DNA of 56,580 nucleotides from a virus (IMGVR_UViG_3300032305_000763:1-56580), one strand, 5' to 3'; counted from the stretch's first letter, positions 2,564-54,864 are shown. Translations and numbers: made by a program. Notes: a model not told the origin generated them from the letters alone.

Positions 2564-2623
2564 CAAACCATTATATCCTATCATCGCCATATAACAAAAC
2601 CTTATCAAACCTTATTCTGGCTA

Positions 2624-2760
2624 TTCGGGATAACTGGTTATCGGGATATCAGGGATAGCAGAGAATATATTCCATACCAGACATATGTGGTTTGTTAAAC
2701 CATTGTTGTCTGTAGGAAGGTTTGCTATCTCTATTTTCGCCTTTGTTGTTTCCCGCCGAA
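2624..2760 (+). ncRNA. Candidate structured intergenic RNA
   Basis: Nested stems 2652-2662/2721-2731, 2670-2673/2715-2718, 2678-2683/2707-2712, 2688-2693/2697-2702; G-U pairs favour the + strand. Confidence 0.35.
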
Positions 2761-2792
2761 ATTTAATCTCAAATAGTGATATAATAATCTTT

Positions 2793-3008
2793 ATGACTCC
2801 ACAAGACTGGGCAGCGCTAATATTATCTATAGCATCTATTTTTGCAATTGTTGCTGGTGGAATCAAGTGGCTCGTAAAACATTATTTAAACGAACTTAAG
2901 CCAAATTCAGGATCCAGTCTAAAAGATTCCGTTAATCGGCTCGAAGAAAAAACTGACAAAATGTTTGATTTATTAATTGAGCATATTAAAGATCATAATA
3001 AAAAATAA
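2793..3008 (+). CDS. Single-TM coiled-coil membrane protein (DUF2746-like, holin-associated in actinophages); start revised to MTPQDW
   Basis: TM helix then ELKPNSGSSLKDSVNRLE; TGATATAAT 7 nt before ATG. Confidence 0.8.
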   Translation: MTPQDWAALILSIASIFAIVAGGIKWLVKHYLNELKPNSGSSLKDSVNRLEEKTDKMFDLLIEHIKDHNKK

Positions 3009-3200
3009 TCTACTATATATAATATATTATAAAAACTAAGTTTAGATATATTCTTTTCTTTATATATTTTAAGTATACACCATAACTACTGGATTTCATA
3101 CTTTTCAAATACTGGACTTTATAACAATTAGGTAACAATTACTTTATATACCTGGACTATAACAATTCGTTACAAACCCCATATATTTTTACAATATTAA
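3009..3200. other. Very AT-rich non-coding tract with short direct repeats, possible replication origin
   Basis: TA-alternating run 3013-3070; CTGGA(C/T)T x3; TAACAATT x3 (3122, 3133, 3160). Confidence 0.35.
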
Positions 3201-3215
3201 TGATATAATCTAAAC

Positions 3216-3275
3216 AGATTAGTCCCTAGGTTGCTCTCTACCCCACCCCACTGCGCCTAGGGATTAATCCTTTTT
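3216..3275 (+). ncRNA. Candidate small RNA: 14-bp stem, C-rich loop, U-tail
   Basis: TGATATAAT at 3201-3209; GATTAGTCCCTAGG (3217-3230) pairs with CCTAGGGATTAATC (3256-3269); loop TCTCTACCCCACCCCAC; followed by TTTTT; no ORF; next gene has its own promoter. Confidence 0.65.
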
Positions 3276-3293
3276 ATGGTATAATCAATTATT

Positions 3294-3698
3294 ATGTGTA
3301 ACTCTTCTATCCAAAAATATGGCGCTAATCCAATAGGCGTAAAATGGAATATTGTGCGTGGAGACACCGCTACACTAGATATTGACTTCCTTGAACTAGA
3401 TGAAATCACAGGCTTTGACTGCACTGGCTGGACCTATAAGGCTACAGCATACGATATCAATGGTGATGTGCTGGATGAACTTATTACAGAGGCTACAGGG
3501 CATTCTGTGACGATTAAGGCACCTGCCTCACTTACCCTTAATTGGGGATCTTCATATAAAAATGTTGTAGCCGAATTACCTTTTGATCTACAAGTTATTA
3601 TTGAAGCAACCAGCGGTCCTGCAGAAGATACAGTTTGGACTCCAATTGTTGGTACAATTACTGTTATAGGAGATGTTTCTCCAGGAGGTAGTCTATGA
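3294..3698 (+). CDS. Virion structural protein, beta-rich RGDT family (BppU-N-like), paralog 1
   Basis: WNIVRGDT...FDLQV...GTITVIGDVS. Confidence 0.8.
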   Translation: MCNSSIQKYGANPIGVKWNIVRGDTATLDIDFLELDEITGFDCTGWTYKATAYDINGDVLDELITEATGHSVTIKAPASLTLNWGSSYKNVVAELPFDLQVIIEATSGPAEDTVWTPIVGTITVIGDVSPGGSL

Positions 3699-3799
3699 GT
3701 ATTCCAACAGATATAGTTATTGCTATTAGTTCTAAGACTGATACGCTACCGTCGATTATTAAAGTTGATAACGTTGTCTACAAGGTACAGGAGTTCTAA
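3695..3799 (+). CDS. Small protein, 34 aa (MSIPTDIVIAISSKTDTLPSIIKVDNVVYKVQEF)
   Basis: ATGA and TAATG overlaps with both neighbours. Confidence 0.7.
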   Translation: MSIPTDIVIAISSKTDTLPSIIKVDNVVYKVQEF

Positions 3800-4143
3800 T
3801 GGCATTTCCAGGAACATATAATTTTAACTACTACCGTGGTGATACAAACCAATTCGTAATCCGTCCAAAAAATGCAAATGGAGGCGCATTTGATTTAACT
3901 GGATACACAGCACAATTTAAAATTGCAAACCGTCGTGGTTCAACTGGTACACAGTATGAAGGACAGGTCACTGTTGATACGACAAATGATTTAGTTACTT
4001 GTACAATTTTGCCAGGTGTAGGAAGAAGCCTTGCTGCAGGAACATTTGTATATGATGTTCAAATTACAACAGGTGCTTCAAATATTATTACAATACTAAC
4101 TGGATCAATTACAGTAACAGATGACATTACGGGTGCTGTCTAA
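3799..4143 (+). CDS. Virion structural protein, RGDT family paralog 2
   Basis: YYRGDT...YDVQI...GSITVTDDIT. Confidence 0.8.
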   Translation: MAFPGTYNFNYYRGDTNQFVIRPKNANGGAFDLTGYTAQFKIANRRGSTGTQYEGQVTVDTTNDLVTCTILPGVGRSLAAGTFVYDVQITTGASNIITILTGSITVTDDITGAV

Positions 4144-4718
4144 TGCCTGATGTTTTATTGTCAAATGATGATGTAACAGTTTTAGGTCCACCAAACACAG
4201 TTGAAGTTTTAGTAGATATTGGTCCAACTGGAACTCGTGGTAGTCAAGTATTTGTTGGCGTTGGAGATCCAAATGTTTTTGAAATTGGTCAAACCCCACT
4301 ATTAAATGATTTATATATAAATGCATCTCCAGGTGCTGACTATGGATATATGTATCAATATGTCTCTGAGCCTGGTGGAGATACCTGGATTCAAATTCTT
4401 GAAATAAGTCCAACACTATATAGCCAACTTCATTCCACAACATATGTTGATGGGGTTGCACAAGTGGTTATACCTATTTCAAACATCGTTACTGTCACTG
4501 GTTCACCATTGGCATCAAATAACTTTGTAGTTCAATATAGCATTGCCCATGATAATCCTACTGCTTCTTCTGTTGCTGTTCCCGCACTTGTCGGGGCTGG
4601 AACAAATTTAGTTCTAAACTTTTCAGCAGTAGAATACACAGGCTCTGTATGGCAAAATCTAGATGAGGAGGTAACCACTCACTTATTTATATCGATTGTT
4701 CTGGACGAAGAGTCATAA
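4143..4718 (+). CDS. Putative virion structural protein, 191 aa
   Basis: Coupled ORF; GPTGTRGS and GDP...NDLYIN motifs typical of fibre N-termini. Confidence 0.75.
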   Translation: MPDVLLSNDDVTVLGPPNTVEVLVDIGPTGTRGSQVFVGVGDPNVFEIGQTPLLNDLYINASPGADYGYMYQYVSEPGGDTWIQILEISPTLYSQLHSTTYVDGVAQVVIPISNIVTVTGSPLASNNFVVQYSIAHDNPTASSVAVPALVGAGTNLVLNFSAVEYTGSVWQNLDEEVTTHLFISIVLDEES

Positions 4719-5890: not shown

Positions 5891-6633
5891 GTCCTTTATT
5901 TGGATACGGTTTAAGTGGTGGAGCAGGAAAATCTCCAATTGTTGCTACTGGTGGAACAACAAGTTCAGTTGGATTATATACATTTCACACATTTAATAGC
6001 ACTGGATCATTTACAGTATCTTCAAATCCAAGTGCTCTAGATATATACGTCTTAATTATTGGCGGTGGAGGCAATGGATCTACTGGTGGTAGAGGCGACC
6101 AAGTAGGTCGTGGTTATGGAGGAAATCCTGGAGGCGCAAGAGAAGCACTTGTTTCTGCTCCTACCGCAGGATCCTATACAGTAACTGTAGGTGGAGCCGC
6201 TGGAACATCTAGTTTTACAGATAATGCTAATTCAATAACACTATCCGCAACTGGCGGAGCCTCTGGTTCTAACAGTGCAAGTCTTGCAGCCTTAACTTCT
6301 GGATATCCAGGACCAAAACGAAAATCACCTGGTAACGCAGCAGCCGCACAAAATGGTTATCCAACATACTTTAATGGTACATTAGTTACATATGGTGGCG
6401 GTGGTGGAGATGGTGCGGGAAGCAGTTACGGCGGGGGTGAAGCCGCAACAAATGGTATTTATTTTGGCGGTAACGGCGGAGCAGGGGTAGACTCAAGTTC
6501 ATCAGGTGGAAGTGCAAATGGTCCAGGCGGTGCAGGCGGTGCAGGCGCTTCTGGTCAGTTTAACAACTCAGGCGGTGGCGGTGGCGGTTCTGGTGGAACT
6601 GGAATTGTTATTATTAAGTATTTTACGGCGTAA
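5887..6633 (+). CDS. Glycine-rich putative adhesin/fibre tip
   Basis: ATGG...YTFHTF...VLIIGGGG...GGTGIVIIKY. Confidence 0.8.
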   Translation: MSPLFGYGLSGGAGKSPIVATGGTTSSVGLYTFHTFNSTGSFTVSSNPSALDIYVLIIGGGGNGSTGGRGDQVGRGYGGNPGGAREALVSAPTAGSYTVTVGGAAGTSSFTDNANSITLSATGGASGSNSASLAALTSGYPGPKRKSPGNAAAAQNGYPTYFNGTLVTYGGGGGDGAGSSYGGGEAATNGIYFGGNGGAGVDSSSSGGSANGPGGAGGAGASGQFNNSGGGGGGSGGTGIVIIKYFTA

Positions 6634-11275: not shown

Positions 11276-12070
11276 ATGCCATTAATGAACCTAGTATCTG
11301 CAGGTGGAATTGGTAAGGCTACTGTAACAGGTACGACTGGTTCTCCTAGTATTGATTCATCTACTCGTGCTGGTAAGACTATTTACAGATTTACTGGATC
11401 TGGTTCTATTACTATTGGAACTGCTGGAACAGCAGAAGTTTTAATTGTTGGTGGTGGCGGTAGTTTTCCATCGGGTTTTACTTCTGGTGGCGGTGGTGGT
11501 GGTGGTTATGTATATGATACTTCTGCAATTCTTCCATCAGGAACTTTGACTGTTACTGTTGGAGGTGGCGGTGGCGGCACTACAACAAGCGCTTTGCCAG
11601 GAGAGCCATCAGCGATTGGAATTTTACCTCTTGGTTATCTTGCTCTTGGGGGAGGTGCTGGTGGTTATAGTAATACTGGTCGGGCTGGTGGTTCAGGTGG
11701 TGGTGGCGCCGGTGTCAGTAACAATACGGGCGGAAGTTCACAGTTAAGCCAAGGTTTTTCTGGGGGTCTTGGAAATGATACAGGAAATTCACGAGGCGGC
11801 GGTGGCGGTGGAGCAGGTGGTGTTGGCAGCAACTCAAACGGAACTATTGGGGGAAATGGTGGCATTGGCGCTACTAATTCTATTACTGGCACATCAACGG
11901 TGTATGCTGGTGGAGGAAACGCATACCAGGCTACAGGCGGGGGAAGTGGCGGTGGCGGAACATCAGCAAGCCCTAATGGAACAGCAAACACAGGCGGTGG
12001 CGGTGGCTCTAATGCTTCTTATGCCGCAAGCAGTGGCGGTTCAGGCGTAGTAGTAGTGGTGATTGGATAA
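11276..12070 (+). CDS. Glycine-rich putative adhesin
   Basis: IYRFTGSGS...VLIVGGGG...NTGGGGG...GGSGVVVV. Confidence 0.8.
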   Translation: MPLMNLVSAGGIGKATVTGTTGSPSIDSSTRAGKTIYRFTGSGSITIGTAGTAEVLIVGGGGSFPSGFTSGGGGGGGYVYDTSAILPSGTLTVTVGGGGGGTTTSALPGEPSAIGILPLGYLALGGGAGGYSNTGRAGGSGGGGAGVSNNTGGSSQLSQGFSGGLGNDTGNSRGGGGGGAGGVGSNSNGTIGGNGGIGATNSITGTSTVYAGGGNAYQATGGGSGGGGTSASPNGTANTGGGGGSNASYAASSGGSGVVVVVIG

Positions 12071-13329: not shown

Positions 13330-14015
13330 TGGGTCTATCAGTATTTCCTGAATCAAGTGGTGCATCTTACACAGCAGTATCCCCATCTTTAAGGGCTACA
13401 TATACAACTACAACAAATAGCATTACTTACAGTGGAGTCAATGCTGCTTTAGTTATTGCAGCAGGCGGCGGAGGCGGCGGAGGCGGCGGTGCTTCAACTG
13501 GATATGGTGGCGGCTCTGGCAGTTCATATGGAGCAGGCGGTGGTGGTGGTGGCGGTGCTGGTGCAATTTTTGTTGGAACTATGGTTCCTCCTCCAAGTAG
13601 CGTAACAATTGGTGCTGCTGGCAATGGTGGAACTGCCCCTGGCAATAGCGGTTCCAACGGTGGTGCTGGTAATGCAGGTGGATCAACAATACTTTCTGGA
13701 AATATCACTTTGGTTGGTGGTAGCGCTGGTAATGGCGGTAGTACTGCTGGCGCCGGCGGCAACACGGCTAACGCTAACGCTGGAGGAACTGGTGGAACTA
13801 GTGGTGGTGCAAGTGGATGGATTCAGGGAACTGCAACTGCTGGATCAAGCGCTGCTGGTACAACTGGACCAGCAGGTGTTGGAGCCAGCGGATATACTAA
13901 TTATGGAAAAGGTGGCAATGGTGGCACGGGGGGTCCTGGTGGATATAGAGAAGATGTTGGTGCTGGAAGTGTTGGTTCCGCTGGCGGAGCAGGAGTTTTA
14001 CTTGTCCACTACTAA
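13329..14015 (+). CDS. Glycine-rich putative adhesin
   Basis: MGLSVFP start; multiple poly-Gly runs. Confidence 0.8.
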   Translation: MGLSVFPESSGASYTAVSPSLRATYTTTTNSITYSGVNAALVIAAGGGGGGGGGASTGYGGGSGSSYGAGGGGGGGAGAIFVGTMVPPPSSVTIGAAGNGGTAPGNSGSNGGAGNAGGSTILSGNITLVGGSAGNGGSTAGAGGNTANANAGGTGGTSGGASGWIQGTATAGSSAAGTTGPAGVGASGYTNYGKGGNGGTGGPGGYREDVGAGSVGSAGGAGVLLVHY

Positions 14016-14380: not shown

Positions 14381-14391
14381 CATTTAATTAT

Positions 14392-14433
14392 AAAAAAAAT
14401 AACCCCCAAGGATTTTTCCAAGGGGGTATTTTT
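14392..14433. terminator. Bidirectional intrinsic terminator
   Basis: A8-TAACCCCC...GGGGGTA-T5 between convergent genes. Confidence 0.8.
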
Positions 14434-19289: not shown

Positions 19290-20672
19290 ATGGCAACTAG
19301 AATTCAAGTCCGTAGAGGTACTACGAGTCAATGGAATACAGCAGATCCAGTCCTTAACGAAGGTGAAATTGGATACAATAGTAACCTTGGTCAAATAAAA
19401 GTTGGTGACGGAACAACTATTTGGTCTGAGTTAGACTACCTTGTTAGCACAGGGTCATTAGATACTAGCCTTGGATCATATATTCCAGATACTGAAAAAA
19501 GTGCAGTTAGTGGTGTAGCAGAACTTGACGCATCTAAAAATATTCTTGCTCCAGCAGGCATTATTTTTGAAGGTACAGCAGATGCCCACGAAACAACTTT
19601 AACGATAACAGACCCAACTGCTGATCGCACAATTACTCTTCCAAATACTAGCGGTACAGTTATTACAACTGGAAACCTTTCAGACATTACAAACATTGGT
19701 GTATTTAGTTCAACAATTACAATGGAAGGTTCAACAGCAAATGATTTTGAACTTACCCTTTCAGCAGGAGATCCAACCGCTGATCGTACTATAACATTCC
19801 CTGACGAAACAGGAACAGTTCAACTTAGAGTAACTGATGTTTCAGATACCGAAATTGGATATCTTAATGGAGTAACCTCTGCTATTCAAACACAGTTAGA
19901 TGCCAGAGTAGAAGAATCTTTATTTGACGCAAAGGGAGACATTTTAGTTGCGTCTGCAGATAACACTCCAGCAAAATTAAGTGTTGGAACAAACGGATAT
20001 ATTCTTACAGCAAACACCTCAGCAGCAACTGGTATAGAGTGGGCTGCAGCACCTGTTGGCTACTCTCCTCCAACATTGGGATCTACTCAGATAGGTTCTG
20101 GTGCTACGGTAACAACAATTTCAGGTCTTACACTTTCAAGCCCAATAGTTTCTGGACTTGCAGTTTCAGATGCGTCTATAGTATTTGAAGGCGCAACAGC
20201 AAACGATTTTGAAACAACTTTAACTGTTACAGACCCTACTGAAGATAGAATCATTACTTTTCCAAATGCTACAGGCACAGTTGCTTTAGCAGAAAATGTG
20301 GCAGCGCTTTCAGGTGCTACCTTTACAGGTGCTATCTCTGGAACAAGCCTAACGCTTTCAGGGGACTTAACAATAAATGGAACAACCACAACAATTAATT
20401 CAACTACCCTTACAGTAGATGATAAGAACATTGTTTTGGCAGATGGAAATACATCAGATGCTTCAGCAGATGGTGGCGGTATTACATTATCAGGTGCTAC
20501 AAGCAAAACCTTTAATTGGGTAGACGCTACTGATGCTTGGACATCTTCAGAACATATGAACTTGCTTACAGGCAAATCTTATAAGATTAACGGCACTTCA
20601 ATTTCAACAGCCTTACCAGCCCTTACATGGGCAGATGTTAAAAATGGTAAGTCTGGTTTAACAATTAGTTAA
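19290..20672 (+). CDS. Fibre protein with major-tropism-determinant-type N-terminal domain
   Basis: MATRIQVRRGT..QW....PVL.EGEIG......KVGDG...W..L; same 3x repeat module as 16787-18799. Confidence 0.85.
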   Translation: MATRIQVRRGTTSQWNTADPVLNEGEIGYNSNLGQIKVGDGTTIWSELDYLVSTGSLDTSLGSYIPDTEKSAVSGVAELDASKNILAPAGIIFEGTADAHETTLTITDPTADRTITLPNTSGTVITTGNLSDITNIGVFSSTITMEGSTANDFELTLSAGDPTADRTITFPDETGTVQLRVTDVSDTEIGYLNGVTSAIQTQLDARVEESLFDAKGDILVASADNTPAKLSVGTNGYILTANTSAATGIEWAAAPVGYSPPTLGSTQIGSGATVTTISGLTLSSPIVSGLAVSDASIVFEGATANDFETTLTVTDPTEDRIITFPNATGTVALAENVAALSGATFTGAISGTSLTLSGDLTINGTTTTINSTTLTVDDKNIVLADGNTSDASADGGGITLSGATSKTFNWVDATDAWTSSEHMNLLTGKSYKINGTSISTALPALTWADVKNGKSGLTIS

Positions 20673-51492: not shown

Positions 51493-51507
51493 CATTAAGG
51501 GTGGGAA

Positions 51508-51699
51508 ATGGTTTTTTGCAAAAAATGCAAAGGTCGTATGTTTGTTGATAGACAATACAGTACGGTTGATCACATGGAAATATTTTGTATGTCTTGTGGA
51601 GAAAGAAAATTTTTTCACCCTCCTTCAGAAAGTGAGCAAGGTAGATGGATACTGCAAAAGGAAAAATCCAGAGCCAACAGTACAATAACGACCCTGTAA
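51508..51699 (+). CDS. Zinc-ribbon protein
   Basis: CKKCKG...CMSCG. Confidence 0.75.
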   Translation: MVFCKKCKGRMFVDRQYSTVDHMEIFCMSCGERKFFHPPSESEQGRWILQKEKSRANSTITTL

Positions 51700-52187: not shown

Positions 52188-52208
52188 AACTATGAAATGG
52201 GTGGGGTA

Positions 52209-52418
52209 ATGGAAAATAATTCAACAAAGGTAAATGTAACTCTAGGCTATACGCTAAACCTTGGAAATTTTCAATCTCTAAGGCTGGACCTTGGAGTTAT
52301 TGATAATAAGCGTGAGGATGAGACTACAGATCAAGCATTTGAACGTGTTTATAAATTTGTAGAAGATAAACTCACTGAGAAGATTAAAGAAGCACAAGAA
52401 GAGGCTGCCGAAGCATAA
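52209..52418 (+). CDS. Small conserved-looking hypothetical protein, start revised to MENNST
   Basis: V.VTLGYTLNLGNFQSLR.D. Confidence 0.75.
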   Translation: MENNSTKVNVTLGYTLNLGNFQSLRLDLGVIDNKREDETTDQAFERVYKFVEDKLTEKIKEAQEEAAEA

Positions 52419-52726
52419 TGCCTGAACGCAAAGACCGCATGGCTTTGCTTAGTAGGTATAGTAAATTACATACAGCAAAGTATGAGCAAAAGCCATCTTT
52501 AAACTTAAACGTAGAACAATGGGCTTCCGATGCTTTAATAGAATCTTATGGTATTAGCAATTGTTACGAACTTCTTGAGTATTACTTTAGTGTTGCACAA
52601 GAACCTAGTTGGAATTATTTTGCATATAATGCAGAAAAAATTATTAATGGAAAAAAAGATTATGAGTTAGATTTGCAAGAGCGCAAAGAGCGCAGAGCAA
52701 TGGCGAGGAAGTGGCTTAGTGAATAA
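52418..52726 (+). CDS. Hypothetical protein (possible helicase loader)
   Basis: Coupled directly to the helicase gene; function inferred from position only. Confidence 0.65.
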   Translation: MPERKDRMALLSRYSKLHTAKYEQKPSLNLNVEQWASDALIESYGISNCYELLEYYFSVAQEPSWNYFAYNAEKIINGKKDYELDLQERKERRAMARKWLSE

Positions 52727-53942
52727 TACAGAAGCAAGAGTAATATCAGCGCTACTTGAAGATAAACAAATGCATGTTTTGCTGCAGGCAAATGTTGAGA
52801 ATCTTCTTAGAACTCATAATGATATCTGGAATTTTATACGTCTATACTTTGAAAACAATGGACGTGTTCCACCAGTATCTTTGGTTGTAGAAAAGTTCAG
52901 AGACTTTGAACCAGTTGCTGGTATTGGTGCAACAAAGCATCATCTTGAAGAATTACAAACTGAGTATTTAAACGATAGTCTAAAGGATATATTAAGATCT
53001 GCAGCAGGTGAAGTTCAGGGTGGCGAAGGAACAAAAGCCCTTGATGAATTGATAACTAAGACTTCTGAATTAAAGAAGAATACCTCTGCTATACGTGATA
53101 TTGATGCAACTGACCTAGATTCTGCAATAGCATACTATGAGAATGTACAAAAACAAAAAGAGAATGGTCAACTTGGAATTAAAACTAACTTGCCAGGTTT
53201 TGATAATTACTTACCTTCTGGAATTATGCCAGGTCAACTAGGAGTCTTTCTTGCCTATCCTGGAATTGGTAAGTCTTGGATGGCTCTTTATTTTGCTGTT
53301 CAAGCATGGAAACAAGGAAAGTCTCCACTAGTTATTTCTCTTGAAATGTCTGAGACAGAAGTTCGTAATAGAGTTTTTGCAATTATGGGTGAGGGCGTTT
53401 GGTCACATAGAAAACTTAGCAACGGAGAAGTTGAATTAGATATGCTAAAGAATTGGCATAAGAATAAAGTAGAAGGCAGACCAGAGTTTCACATTATTTC
53501 AAACGATAATGGCGGTGAAGTAACCCCATCTGTTATTCGTGGAAAGATTGATCAATACAAGCCAGACTTTGTTATTGTAGACTACTTGCAACTTATGAGT
53601 CCAAACCAAAAGTCAGATAATGAAACGGTACGAATGAAAAACCTTTCACGAGAACTTAAACTTATGGCTATTAGCGAAGAGGTTCCTATCATTGCTATCT
53701 CATCTGCAACACCAGATGATGTTAAAGATCTTAGCAGCGCACCTACACTAGGTCAAACTGCATGGTCTAGACAGATTGCTTATGATGCTGACTGGGTAAT
53801 GGCACTTGGTCGTGCTAGCAATAGTGACATTATTGAATGCGTATTTAGAAAAAATCGTAATGGATTTATGGGTGATTTTTTAGTGCAAGTAGATTTTGAT
53901 AAAGGATACTATCGTTACAAAGACTATGAAGATGGCAAGTAA
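52719..53942 (+). CDS. dnaB: DnaB-like replicative helicase
   Basis: Walker A AYPGIGKS, SLEMS, IVDYLQLM, SRELK, I..DAD, KNRNG. Confidence 0.95.
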   Translation: MNNTEARVISALLEDKQMHVLLQANVENLLRTHNDIWNFIRLYFENNGRVPPVSLVVEKFRDFEPVAGIGATKHHLEELQTEYLNDSLKDILRSAAGEVQGGEGTKALDELITKTSELKKNTSAIRDIDATDLDSAIAYYENVQKQKENGQLGIKTNLPGFDNYLPSGIMPGQLGVFLAYPGIGKSWMALYFAVQAWKQGKSPLVISLEMSETEVRNRVFAIMGEGVWSHRKLSNGEVELDMLKNWHKNKVEGRPEFHIISNDNGGEVTPSVIRGKIDQYKPDFVIVDYLQLMSPNQKSDNETVRMKNLSRELKLMAISEEVPIIAISSATPDDVKDLSSAPTLGQTAWSRQIAYDADWVMALGRASNSDIIECVFRKNRNGFMGDFLVQVDFDKGYYRYKDYEDGK

Positions 53943-54864
53943 TATGACTGATATATACACAGAAGATCAAATTAGAAAAGTCTTAAATGGAGTTGGCGTA
54001 GATGTTGAGGCTGAGTTTGGCAATGAGTTAATTGTCTATTGTCCTTATCACAATAACAGCAGAACACCAGCAGGTGAAATATCTAAAGAGCATGGAAGAT
54101 TTTTCTGTTTTGGTTGCCAAATTACAAAAGGTTTAGATGAATTTGTTATGACAGTATCTAATAGAACATACTTTGAGGCAGTTAGATATATTCGCAGCAA
54201 GGGACAAGAAACAGACTTAACAAGTGTAATTAATAAAACACTTTATAGTCCACCAGACTTTGTTCAATATGACGAGTTATTAATTAAAAGATTAAACAAC
54301 CAGGCTATGGAATCACCAAGAGCCGTCAGATATTTTGAAGGCAGAAAGATTACAAAAGATTCTATGATTAAGTTTGCACTTGGATATTCTGAAAAGCAAG
54401 ATTCAGTTACTGTCCCAATGCACAATCACGAAAGCATGTGTCTTGGTTTTGTTGCTAGAACAATTGAAGGCAAGGACTTTAAAAATACACCAGGATTACC
54501 TAAAAGTAAAATTTTGTTTAATCTAAATAGAATTAAAGCATCAAGCATAGTATATGTAGTTGAATCATCTTTTGATGCAATTCGACTAGATCAAATAGGT
54601 TTCCCAGCAGTTGCAACTCTGGGTGCTAATGTGTCTGTATCACAGATCAGACTATTAGAGAAGTACTTCAACAACGTTGTACTAATAGCAGACAACGATG
54701 AAGCAGGAGTTATCATGACTGAGAAGTTAATTGAAAAACTTGGGTCAAGGGTAACTGTTATTCATCTAGACAAAAAATATAAAGATATAGGTGATATGGA
54801 TGATGAGTCAATAAGAAAACTTGAATTTCAGTTTGACAATTCTATATCGTCTATGCTAAACTAA
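53932..54864 (+). CDS. dnaG: DNA primase (CHC2 Zn finger + TOPRIM)
   Basis: CPYH...TP......FFCFGC; VVESSFDA; DNDEAG; KDIGD; start could be 53932 or 53944. Confidence 0.92.
   Translation: MASNMTDIYTEDQIRKVLNGVGVDVEAEFGNELIVYCPYHNNSRTPAGEISKEHGRFFCFGCQITKGLDEFVMTVSNRTYFEAVRYIRSKGQETDLTSVINKTLYSPPDFVQYDELLIKRLNNQAMESPRAVRYFEGRKITKDSMIKFALGYSEKQDSVTVPMHNHESMCLGFVARTIEGKDFKNTPGLPKSKILFNLNRIKASSIVYVVESSFDAIRLDQIGFPAVATLGANVSVSQIRLLEKYFNNVVLIADNDEAGVIMTEKLIEKLGSRVTVIHLDKKYKDIGDMDDESIRKLEFQFDNSISSMLN

Follow-up and report, generated by a model that had tools for sequence, protein, structure and literature searches.

Several bacterial small RNAs (sRNAs), including RNAIII hairpins, SprX, and RsaE/RoxS of S. 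aureus and the actinobacterial 6C RNA, pair a C-rich loop with the Shine-Dalgarno sequence of an mRNA and block initiation; 6C RNA reportedly acts without a chaperone. In plasmid R1, CopA, a small hairpin RNA encoded antisense to its target CopT with full complementarity, blocks the short upstream frame tap, whose translation is coupled to that of repA. Among phages, the C4 RNA of P1 and P7 masks a ribosome-binding site (RBS) via loop sequences, and P22 sar and lambda OOP are cis-antisense RNAs. Intrinsic terminators, finally, usually have loops of 3-8 nt. C-rich-loop sRNAs of Gram-positive bacteria are covered in PMC6486639, PMC2837412, and PMC4005690. According to PMC12197685, VpdS (phage VP882) and PreS (lambda) are Hfq-dependent enterobacterial or Vibrio sRNAs, with PreS acting on host dnaN, and characterized phage sRNAs come nearly all from a few enterobacterial, Vibrio, Pseudomonas, and Staphylococcus model phages.

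We analyzed a stretch of viral DNA of 56,580 nucleotides (IMGVR_UViG_3300032305_000763:1-56580, hereafter the window), which covers roughly half the genome of a tailed phage of ~100 kb (completeness rating of the record, 52%). A hairpin encoded near its left end offers, like RNAIII, SprX, RsaE, and 6C, an unpaired C-rich loop to a G-rich start region. Unlike those sRNAs, it is encoded by a phage whose own replication operon its loop matches, is a single hairpin predicted to double as terminator, lacks an Rfam sequence or structure match to them, and in half of its family (type D) would pair via a GGGUAUGA-like segment instead of a plain G-run. As with CopA, tap, and repA, the start of a short first frame would be blocked, with replication genes coupled behind it (a coupling predicted here from gene overlaps), and constitutive synthesis would make the level of the RNA report gene dosage. 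In contrast to CopA, the RNA gene is 40-60 kb from its target and the predicted pairing extends over 7-10 nt, and unlike the tap leader peptide, the first frame encodes a strongly conserved 69-aa protein. The hairpin shares with C4, sar, OOP, VpdS, and PreS the properties of a phage-encoded small RNA, with predicted base pairing to genes related to phage development or replication, but it has no Rfam 15 match and, unlike OOP and sar, is not cis-antisense. A cis-antisense RNA would be encoded on the strand opposite its target; the hairpin gene and the target are on the same strand of the window, and in six whole genomes they are 40-60 kb apart.

No family matched the whole window in Rfam 15 at the gathering threshold, and at E <=10 the region 3100-3400 gave only noise (E >=2.9, <=16 bits), 6C, RsaE/RoxS, and C4 not being matched. 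A blastn search of 2600-4200 against deposited phage genomes returned only two 159-nt matches (72%), inside the upstream gene. Nothing like the hairpin RNA family was found in the literature, leaving aside the 38 phage sRNAs of no known function in Supplementary Table S1 of PMC12197685, which might include something related. As judged from sequence, it is a new RNA family of putative trans-acting, start-occluding sRNAs that are encoded by a phage and directed against its replication operon, and it is present in hundreds of contigs of uncultured phages.

The RNA gene and its surroundings comprise the following features.

3201-3209, + strand: P1, extended -10 promoter TGATATAAT of the small RNA (from sequence)
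3216-3275, + strand: predicted ~60-nt small RNA, hairpin and U-tail (fold; 75.6 bits with covariance model R1)
3217-3231, + strand: 5' arm of the stem (fold and covariation)
3235-3252, + strand: apical loop UCUCUACCCCACCCCACU, 18 nt, C-rich (fold; conserved core ACCC(C)ACC)
3239-3248, + strand: seed, the target-complementary loop stretch TACCCCACCC (exact complement of 52199-52208)
3255-3269, + strand: 3' arm of the stem (fold and covariation)
3271-3275, + strand: U-tract TTTTT, preceded by a single C after the stem (from sequence)
3277-3285, + strand: P2, extended -10 promoter TGGTATAAT, 8 nt ahead of ATG 3294
3294-3698, + strand: downstream gene, 134 aa, phrog_1084, function not assigned (PHROG)

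The first-pass annotation had proposed a dedicated promoter, a stem-loop with a U-tail, and no ORF at this locus, and each of these held: TGATATAAT is present at 3201-3209, 15 stem pairs and an 18-nt loop are followed by five T, and the + strand of the hairpin region contains no ORF of >=30 aa. Two further inner G-C pairs of hairpin 3217-3269 are optional. The + strand folds at -25.0 kcal/mol (z = -4.2; none of 200 shuffles was as stable), and the - strand fold is weaker (-20.2 kcal/mol, z = -1.5). P1 resembles other promoters of the structural region, and since the hairpin base is located 7 nt past its hexamer, transcription is predicted to start at ~3216-3217. At the sequence level, the unit is thus delimited by its own promoter and terminator as a short non-coding transcript. 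The U-tailed hairpin is predicted to be the intrinsic terminator of its own RNA: it has the G+C-containing stem and T-run of such terminators (15 bp, -25 kcal/mol, C then TTTTT), but instead of a short unconstrained loop it carries one of 18 nt with a conserved core (17-25 nt in the family), and its own promoter is placed for a start at the stem base. A terminator scan allowing loops of 3-8 nt did not list hairpin 3217-3269. P2, from its position, is the predicted promoter of a leaderless or nearly leaderless mRNA.

Relatives were sought in viral contigs with the protein of gene 3294-3698, yielding 54 loci (46-87% identity), and the same layout was seen upstream of the homologues. A covariance model, R1, built from 33 distinct hairpin copies detected a single hairpin in each of 53 of these loci; the remaining one, L055, lacks upstream DNA, and the hairpin of L027 is ~800 nt further upstream. 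Each of six whole or near-whole genomes (600,211 bases) contains one copy. In the 33-copy alignment, 12 of 14 stem pairs show compensatory changes, and 81.2% of cells are paired versus 66.8 +/- 1.5% in shuffles, falling to 42-65% when the partner is shifted by one column; the covariation score was reached by none of 500 shuffles. G:U pairs are frequent in the stem, in keeping with an RNA read from the + strand. The stem drifts freely and the loop, 17-25 nt across the family, retains the core ACCC(C)ACC with CCCAC invariant in all 33 distinct copies, which bears out the loop conservation on which the original proposal depended. As in sRNAs, a conserved single-stranded seed is found inside a covarying structure. 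With R1, 50 records bearing the target gene described below gave two copies, and at least two real copies (G044 and G056, recognized by synteny) were below threshold.

Two DNA patterns combining loop core and P2 matched at least 120 viral contigs each (at least 240 matches), from which 190 distinct related regions were taken for a survey of promoters and tails. A -10-like hexamer is present upstream of the hairpin in 166 of these regions, with a TG extension in 157 of the 166, and it ends 5-9 nt (most commonly 6 nt) ahead of the hairpin base in 140 of the 166; this fixed distance suggests that transcription would begin at the stem base. At least four T occur within 10 nt past the hairpin in 158/190 regions, and the gap from the P2 TATAAT to the ATG is 6-9 nt in 157/190. 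Metatranscriptome contigs from four runs cover relatives of the hairpin region, one of them bridging 3199-3742 through the hairpin RNA into the next gene; such contigs show no ends, strand, or level, and a lack of contig cover elsewhere has no meaning. Taken together, we regard 3216-3275 as almost certainly a conserved structured RNA gene.

Elsewhere in the window, R1 gave only a weak match at 14390-14433 on the - strand (18.8 bits, E = 0.04), which coincides with a terminator-like hairpin between convergent genes and is probably merely a terminator. A minus-strand ORF starting in the loop was rejected, being found in G006 only and not conserved. The type-D DNA pattern also matched two larger records, G076 (483 kb) and G096 (312 kb), from which the target gene is absent.

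The family belongs to uncultured ~100-kb siphovirus-like phages. A near-identical complete relative of the window, G001, is 101.5 kb long with terminal repeats. The window encodes a tape-measure protein, portal, protease, major capsid protein, class II-like ribonucleotide reductase, DnaB-like helicase, primase, SSB, and DNA polymerase, with nearly all genes on the + strand, and a tRNA/tmRNA scan found none. Eighteen TGnTATAAT motifs (TGNTATAAT) occur in the whole window, all on the + strand, versus 5.5 expected, and about nine genes begin 6-11 nt past one. Since the motif is often 6-9 nt ahead of the ATG, such genes are taken to be leaderless, and leaderless mRNAs would be common in the phage. 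The remaining genes have Shine-Dalgarno sequences of the AGGAG/GAGGTG type, in agreement with the earlier statement that structural genes are mostly leaderless or use AGGAG(G). Two full promoters (TTGACT-17-TATACT with TG) at 354-382 and 506-534 are possibly early promoters; no others in the first 20 kb have a good -35.

The proposed target is the start of the first gene of the replication module, at the other end of the window.

52199-52208, + strand: target site GGGTGGGGTA, -10 to -1 of the start region (complement of the loop)
52209-52418, + strand: target gene, 69 aa, phrog_5189, first of the replication module (PHROG)
52418-54864, + strand: overlapping chain downstream of the target gene (coordinates, overlaps, PHROG names)
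52418-52726, + strand: 102-aa gene, overlapping the end of the target gene (ATAATG, 52416-52420)
52719-53942, + strand: DnaB-like helicase (GTG 52719 inside the preceding gene)
53896-54864, + strand: primase (start 53896 inside the helicase gene)

Expression of the 102-aa gene, helicase, and primase may depend on translation of the target gene, as the overlaps suggest. The 69-aa protein is strongly conserved (mean column identity of 85% over 22 sequences) and its gene is very common, with more than 599 pattern matches. Discrete forms precede the gene, namely GGGTGGGGTAATG, GGGTGGGTAATG, AGGTGGGGTATG, GAAGGGTATGAAATG, and GAAGGGTATAAAATG, and rarely GGGAGGG. The protein has no Pfam family, belongs to a PHROG family of no assigned function, and falls into hypothetical viral clusters only in the Atlas. 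Its AlphaFold2 model is poor (pLDDT 67.5, with a C-terminal helix only). Its profile gave weak matches in the PDB to RecA residues 193-234 (the ...RLD... region), confined to multi-copy RecA fusion chains, no single stretch being significant. Eight loci with relatives of the gene (L473-L480) are in metagenome bins of seven unrelated taxa (Acidimicrobiaceae, Beijerinckiaceae, Bifidobacterium, Flavobacterium, Polynucleobacter, Acetobacteraceae, and Methylococcus) and are therefore uninformative on the host; they are most likely mis-binned phage contigs. One 101-kb record, G006 (L141, L470, L472), has several stops in the target and DNA-polymerase genes and is either degraded or error-rich.

The claim that loop bases 3239-3248 are the exact 10-nt complement of 52199-52208, adjoining ATG 52209, proved correct. 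In the window, GGGTGGGG occurs twice versus 0.40 expected, and five of 100 shuffles reach two. Given the resemblance of C-rich loops to the anti-Shine-Dalgarno, G-rich start regions should match them to some extent by nature. Among random 31-nt windows of the same genomes, 1.2-2.6% have a perfect loop match of >=7 nt, 0.2-0.55% one of >=8 nt, and ~0.03% one of >=10 nt. The target gene was sought in 78 hairpin-RNA-bearing records and found in 29; those without it are mostly fragments <70% complete. Four extra pairs came from target-bearing records holding a hairpin RNA, giving, with the window, 34 genomes. The match was measured as the longest perfect Watson-Crick run between the loop apex and positions -25 to +6 of the 69-aa gene. 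It was >=7 nt in 32 of the 34 genomes, >=8 nt in 22, and 10 nt in six; the DNA-polymerase start region, used as a control, matched over 4-5 nt only in 28/28 genomes. The 7-nt matches of type-C genomes are individually weak. The duplex proper extends from -11 to -2 in most relatives and takes in the AUG itself in G008 and G074.

An unbiased scan of seven genomes, in which loop matches adjoining start codons were clustered by orthology, singled out the 69-aa gene: no other orthologue group was matched at its start over >=7 nt in both loop families. As a type-D target, the DNA-polymerase start codon was rejected, the site being an internal ATG in G007 and belonging to a different gene in G008. 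When the window was scanned with the loop by raw RNAduplex energy, the target ranked ~10th: Gly-rich coding repeats GGTGGCGGTGG outscore it when G:U is allowed, and a scan dominated by these Gly-codon repeats is therefore unfit as a target finder. The repeats are located in tail-fibre-like genes (6388-6594, 11441-12051, and 13460-13555).

Loop and target change together. Loop UACCCCACCC corresponds to target GGGTGGGGTA in the window, G001, and G020, loop UACCCCACC to target GGTGGGGTA, loop UACCCACC to target GGTGGGTA in G107, and longer loops such as CUUCAUACCC to GGGTATGAAG in G082. Among type-D genomes, loop CAUACCC faces GGGTATG in 15 of 16 and loop UAUACCC faces GGGTATA in six of seven. 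Exceptions are G083, where loop CAUACCC meets GGGTATA and pairs over 6 nt because the loop C faces a target A, and G072, where a canonical GGAGGGG has replaced the usual target (5 nt); in G002 the loop is that of the window and the target has lost one G, which cuts the match from 10 nt to 7. For the 27 distinct combinations, loops matched their own targets over a mean of 7.89 nt and targets of other genomes over 6.66 nt; none of 20,000 permutations reached the own-target mean. Co-variation of loop and target RBS, which the first-pass annotation had listed among the checks on its proposal, is thus seen in the family. In a tree of 25 genomes built from the N-terminal part of the DNA polymerase, there are three changes of loop family and three at the C/U position, and the target shifts in the same direction in an average of 2.8 and 2.6 of three independent pairs, respectively, and never in the opposite one; with only three independent pairs per trait, a sign test cannot reach significance (median p = 0.25). 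Four C-rich-loop genomes (G046, G111, G005, and G108) nest in the type-D clade with targets still matched, suggesting that, in these mosaic genomes, selection keeps two widely separated sites matched. Co-variation of loop and target allows the target to be named from sequence alone, and the natural allele pairs CAUACCC/GGGUAUG, UAUACCC/GGGUAUA, and UACCCCACC/GGUGGGGUA could serve as built-in compensatory controls. With this conserved and co-varying complementarity between distant loci, we have good confidence that the loop pairs with the start region of 52209.

The wider set of targets proposed earlier fared less well. GGGTGGG is present at 51499-51505, ahead of ATG 51508, and GGGGGTA at 845-851 and 968-974. 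GGGTGGG is not enriched in the window (three versus 2.1 expected), and the 7-nt match at 51499, like the 6-nt matches at 845 and 968, is at or near chance, >=7 nt having a probability of ~2% per random window of this genome. The match ahead of the Zn-ribbon gene at 51508 is 7 nt in three nearly identical type-A genomes only and drops to 3-4 nt in three other genomes with the gene, of which no homologue is present in G008. Early genes 860 and 980 have 6-nt matches only, which are not conserved: gene 860 has a single homologue in six genomes, with a start match of 4 nt, and gene 980 has none. The first-pass interpretation is therefore supported in part. Conservation, stem covariation, and loop-target co-variation in 34 genomes favor a dedicated sRNA whose loop is matched to the RBS of 52209, and the wider regulon was not borne out.

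Co-variation would be equally expected if the hairpin were a terminator or insulator for P2 and the loop and the 52199 motif were two inverted sites of one protein with co-evolving specificity, read as dsDNA at both loci or as RNA at one, with no RNA-RNA pairing. The position of the hairpin, 8 nt ahead of P2 in every relative, the clean 5' end that a leaderless mRNA requires, the terminator-like stem and U-tract, and operator-like repeats just upstream are all consistent with this explanation. However, termination requires neither a loop of 17-25 nt nor conservation of its sequence, a hairpin is superfluous for a DNA site, and stem covariation with G:U pairs points to constraint at the RNA level. 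P1, placed for a start at the hairpin base, would be needless for insulation from upstream, the matching segment shifts its position and grows longer (7-10 nt, in some cases with the AUG) in a manner typical of base pairing, and no candidate protein was identified among the window ORFs scanned. We consider this explanation unlikely.

The loop is longer than the 7-10 nt used, and its conserved parts CUCU and CACUGC have no conserved phage partner. These features would fit an sRNA that mainly targets host mRNAs with G-rich starts, or another host RNA, with the phage gene secondary; C-rich-loop sRNAs such as 6C are known to have many start regions as targets (PMC6486639). Such an explanation leaves unaccounted for the correspondence between loop variants and the start region in the phage itself, and we judge it quite unlikely.

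Predicted energies of the loop:target duplex are -22.3 kcal/mol for the window and between -11.8 and -17.9 kcal/mol for six relatives, and a generic anti-Shine-Dalgarno gives -6 to -9 kcal/mol on the same leaders (-7.4 in the window). This weak Shine-Dalgarno contact could be taken to mean that the RNA pairs with the 52209 start and activates it, by opening a structure or, as the first-pass annotation had offered as its alternative, by serving as an adaptor for a non-canonical Shine-Dalgarno. The duplex, however, covers -11 to -2, plus the AUG in G008 and G074, which is where the 30S subunit must bind, and there is little structure to open (predicted at -5.4 kcal/mol over 76 nt of leader), making activation very improbable. 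A promoter-proximal terminated leader like lambda PR'-6S-tR', in which an antiterminator would let P1 read through into the structural genes, would suit a short terminated transcript directly upstream of a long structural-gene block but is the least probable of the explanations considered, as it leaves the loop-target match unexplained, the strong conserved P2 with its leaderless start past the terminator means that read-through is not needed and would give an untranslatable first gene, and no Q-like protein was found with PHROGs/Pfam in 41 and 16 ORFs of the window, itself about half of the genome.

We therefore return to a trans-acting sRNA that occludes the RBS of 52209. Host RNA polymerase would start at P1 and stop at the RNA's own hairpin and U-tract, giving a ~60-nt RNA whose long, freely varying stem would merely display the C-rich loop. 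The loop would pair with the mRNA of the replication module, transcribed from a locus 40-60 kb away, at about -11 to -2. Because the loop duplex (-12 to -22 kcal/mol) is stronger than the Shine-Dalgarno contact (-6 to -9 kcal/mol), the 30S subunit would be kept off the start of the 69-aa gene and its translation lowered, and because the following genes overlap it, translation of the 102-aa protein, helicase, and primase should fall too. We infer from these features a discrete RNA species, repression rather than activation, and spread by coupling; the late action put forward in the first-pass annotation is conjectural. The RNA thus probably throttles translation of the phage's own DNA-replication operon, and the full model, repression included, is the reading that we favor with modest confidence. 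It offers a directly testable case of a virus controlling its own replication operon via a trans-acting RNA.

A more tentative extension, which we hold to be doubtful, is that the RNA is a gene-dosage sensor providing copy-number control of the helicase-primase operon in trans. If so, constitutive RNA from every genome copy would titrate the start of the first coupled gene, and the supply of replication proteins would fall with rising copy number, a plasmid-style control like that of CopA, tap, and repA acting in trans over 40-60 kb. The hairpin would also insulate the neighboring leaderless late promoter, and the lock-and-key match of loop and target could bar cross-regulation by co-infecting relatives.

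The family marks a conserved regulatory hub of operator-like repeats, sRNA, and leaderless late promoter. Operator-like palindromes TATAAC-N5-GTTA are located upstream of P1 at 3120-3134 and 3158-3172 and also occur at 612-626 and 20657-20671 (11 matches versus 6.5 expected); relatives of the second loop family have TGTCCGnnTTGT instead, just ahead of the -10 of the RNA. The position of these repeats suggests that P1 may be regulated. About 150 nt upstream of the hairpin RNA, a block TTCTTTTCTTTATATATTTTAAGTATACACCAT at 3040-3085 is conserved over both loop families (the regular expression GTATACACC matched 24 of 55 loci, two in unrelated contexts). Contigs of four metatranscriptome runs pile up on 3031-3084, and the block could be another promoter or small transcript.

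Two further recurrent loop matches were seen in type-A genomes, G001 and G002, beyond the window's half of the genome (coordinates with the sRNA on the plus strand, G001 being the reverse complement of its record). (A)GCAGTGGGGT occurs 12 nt into a gene for a 288-aa signal-peptide protein (G001 72278, G002 72391), and GGGGTAGA or GGGTAGAG is present in the start region of a 61-62-aa gene (G001 77360, G002 77692).
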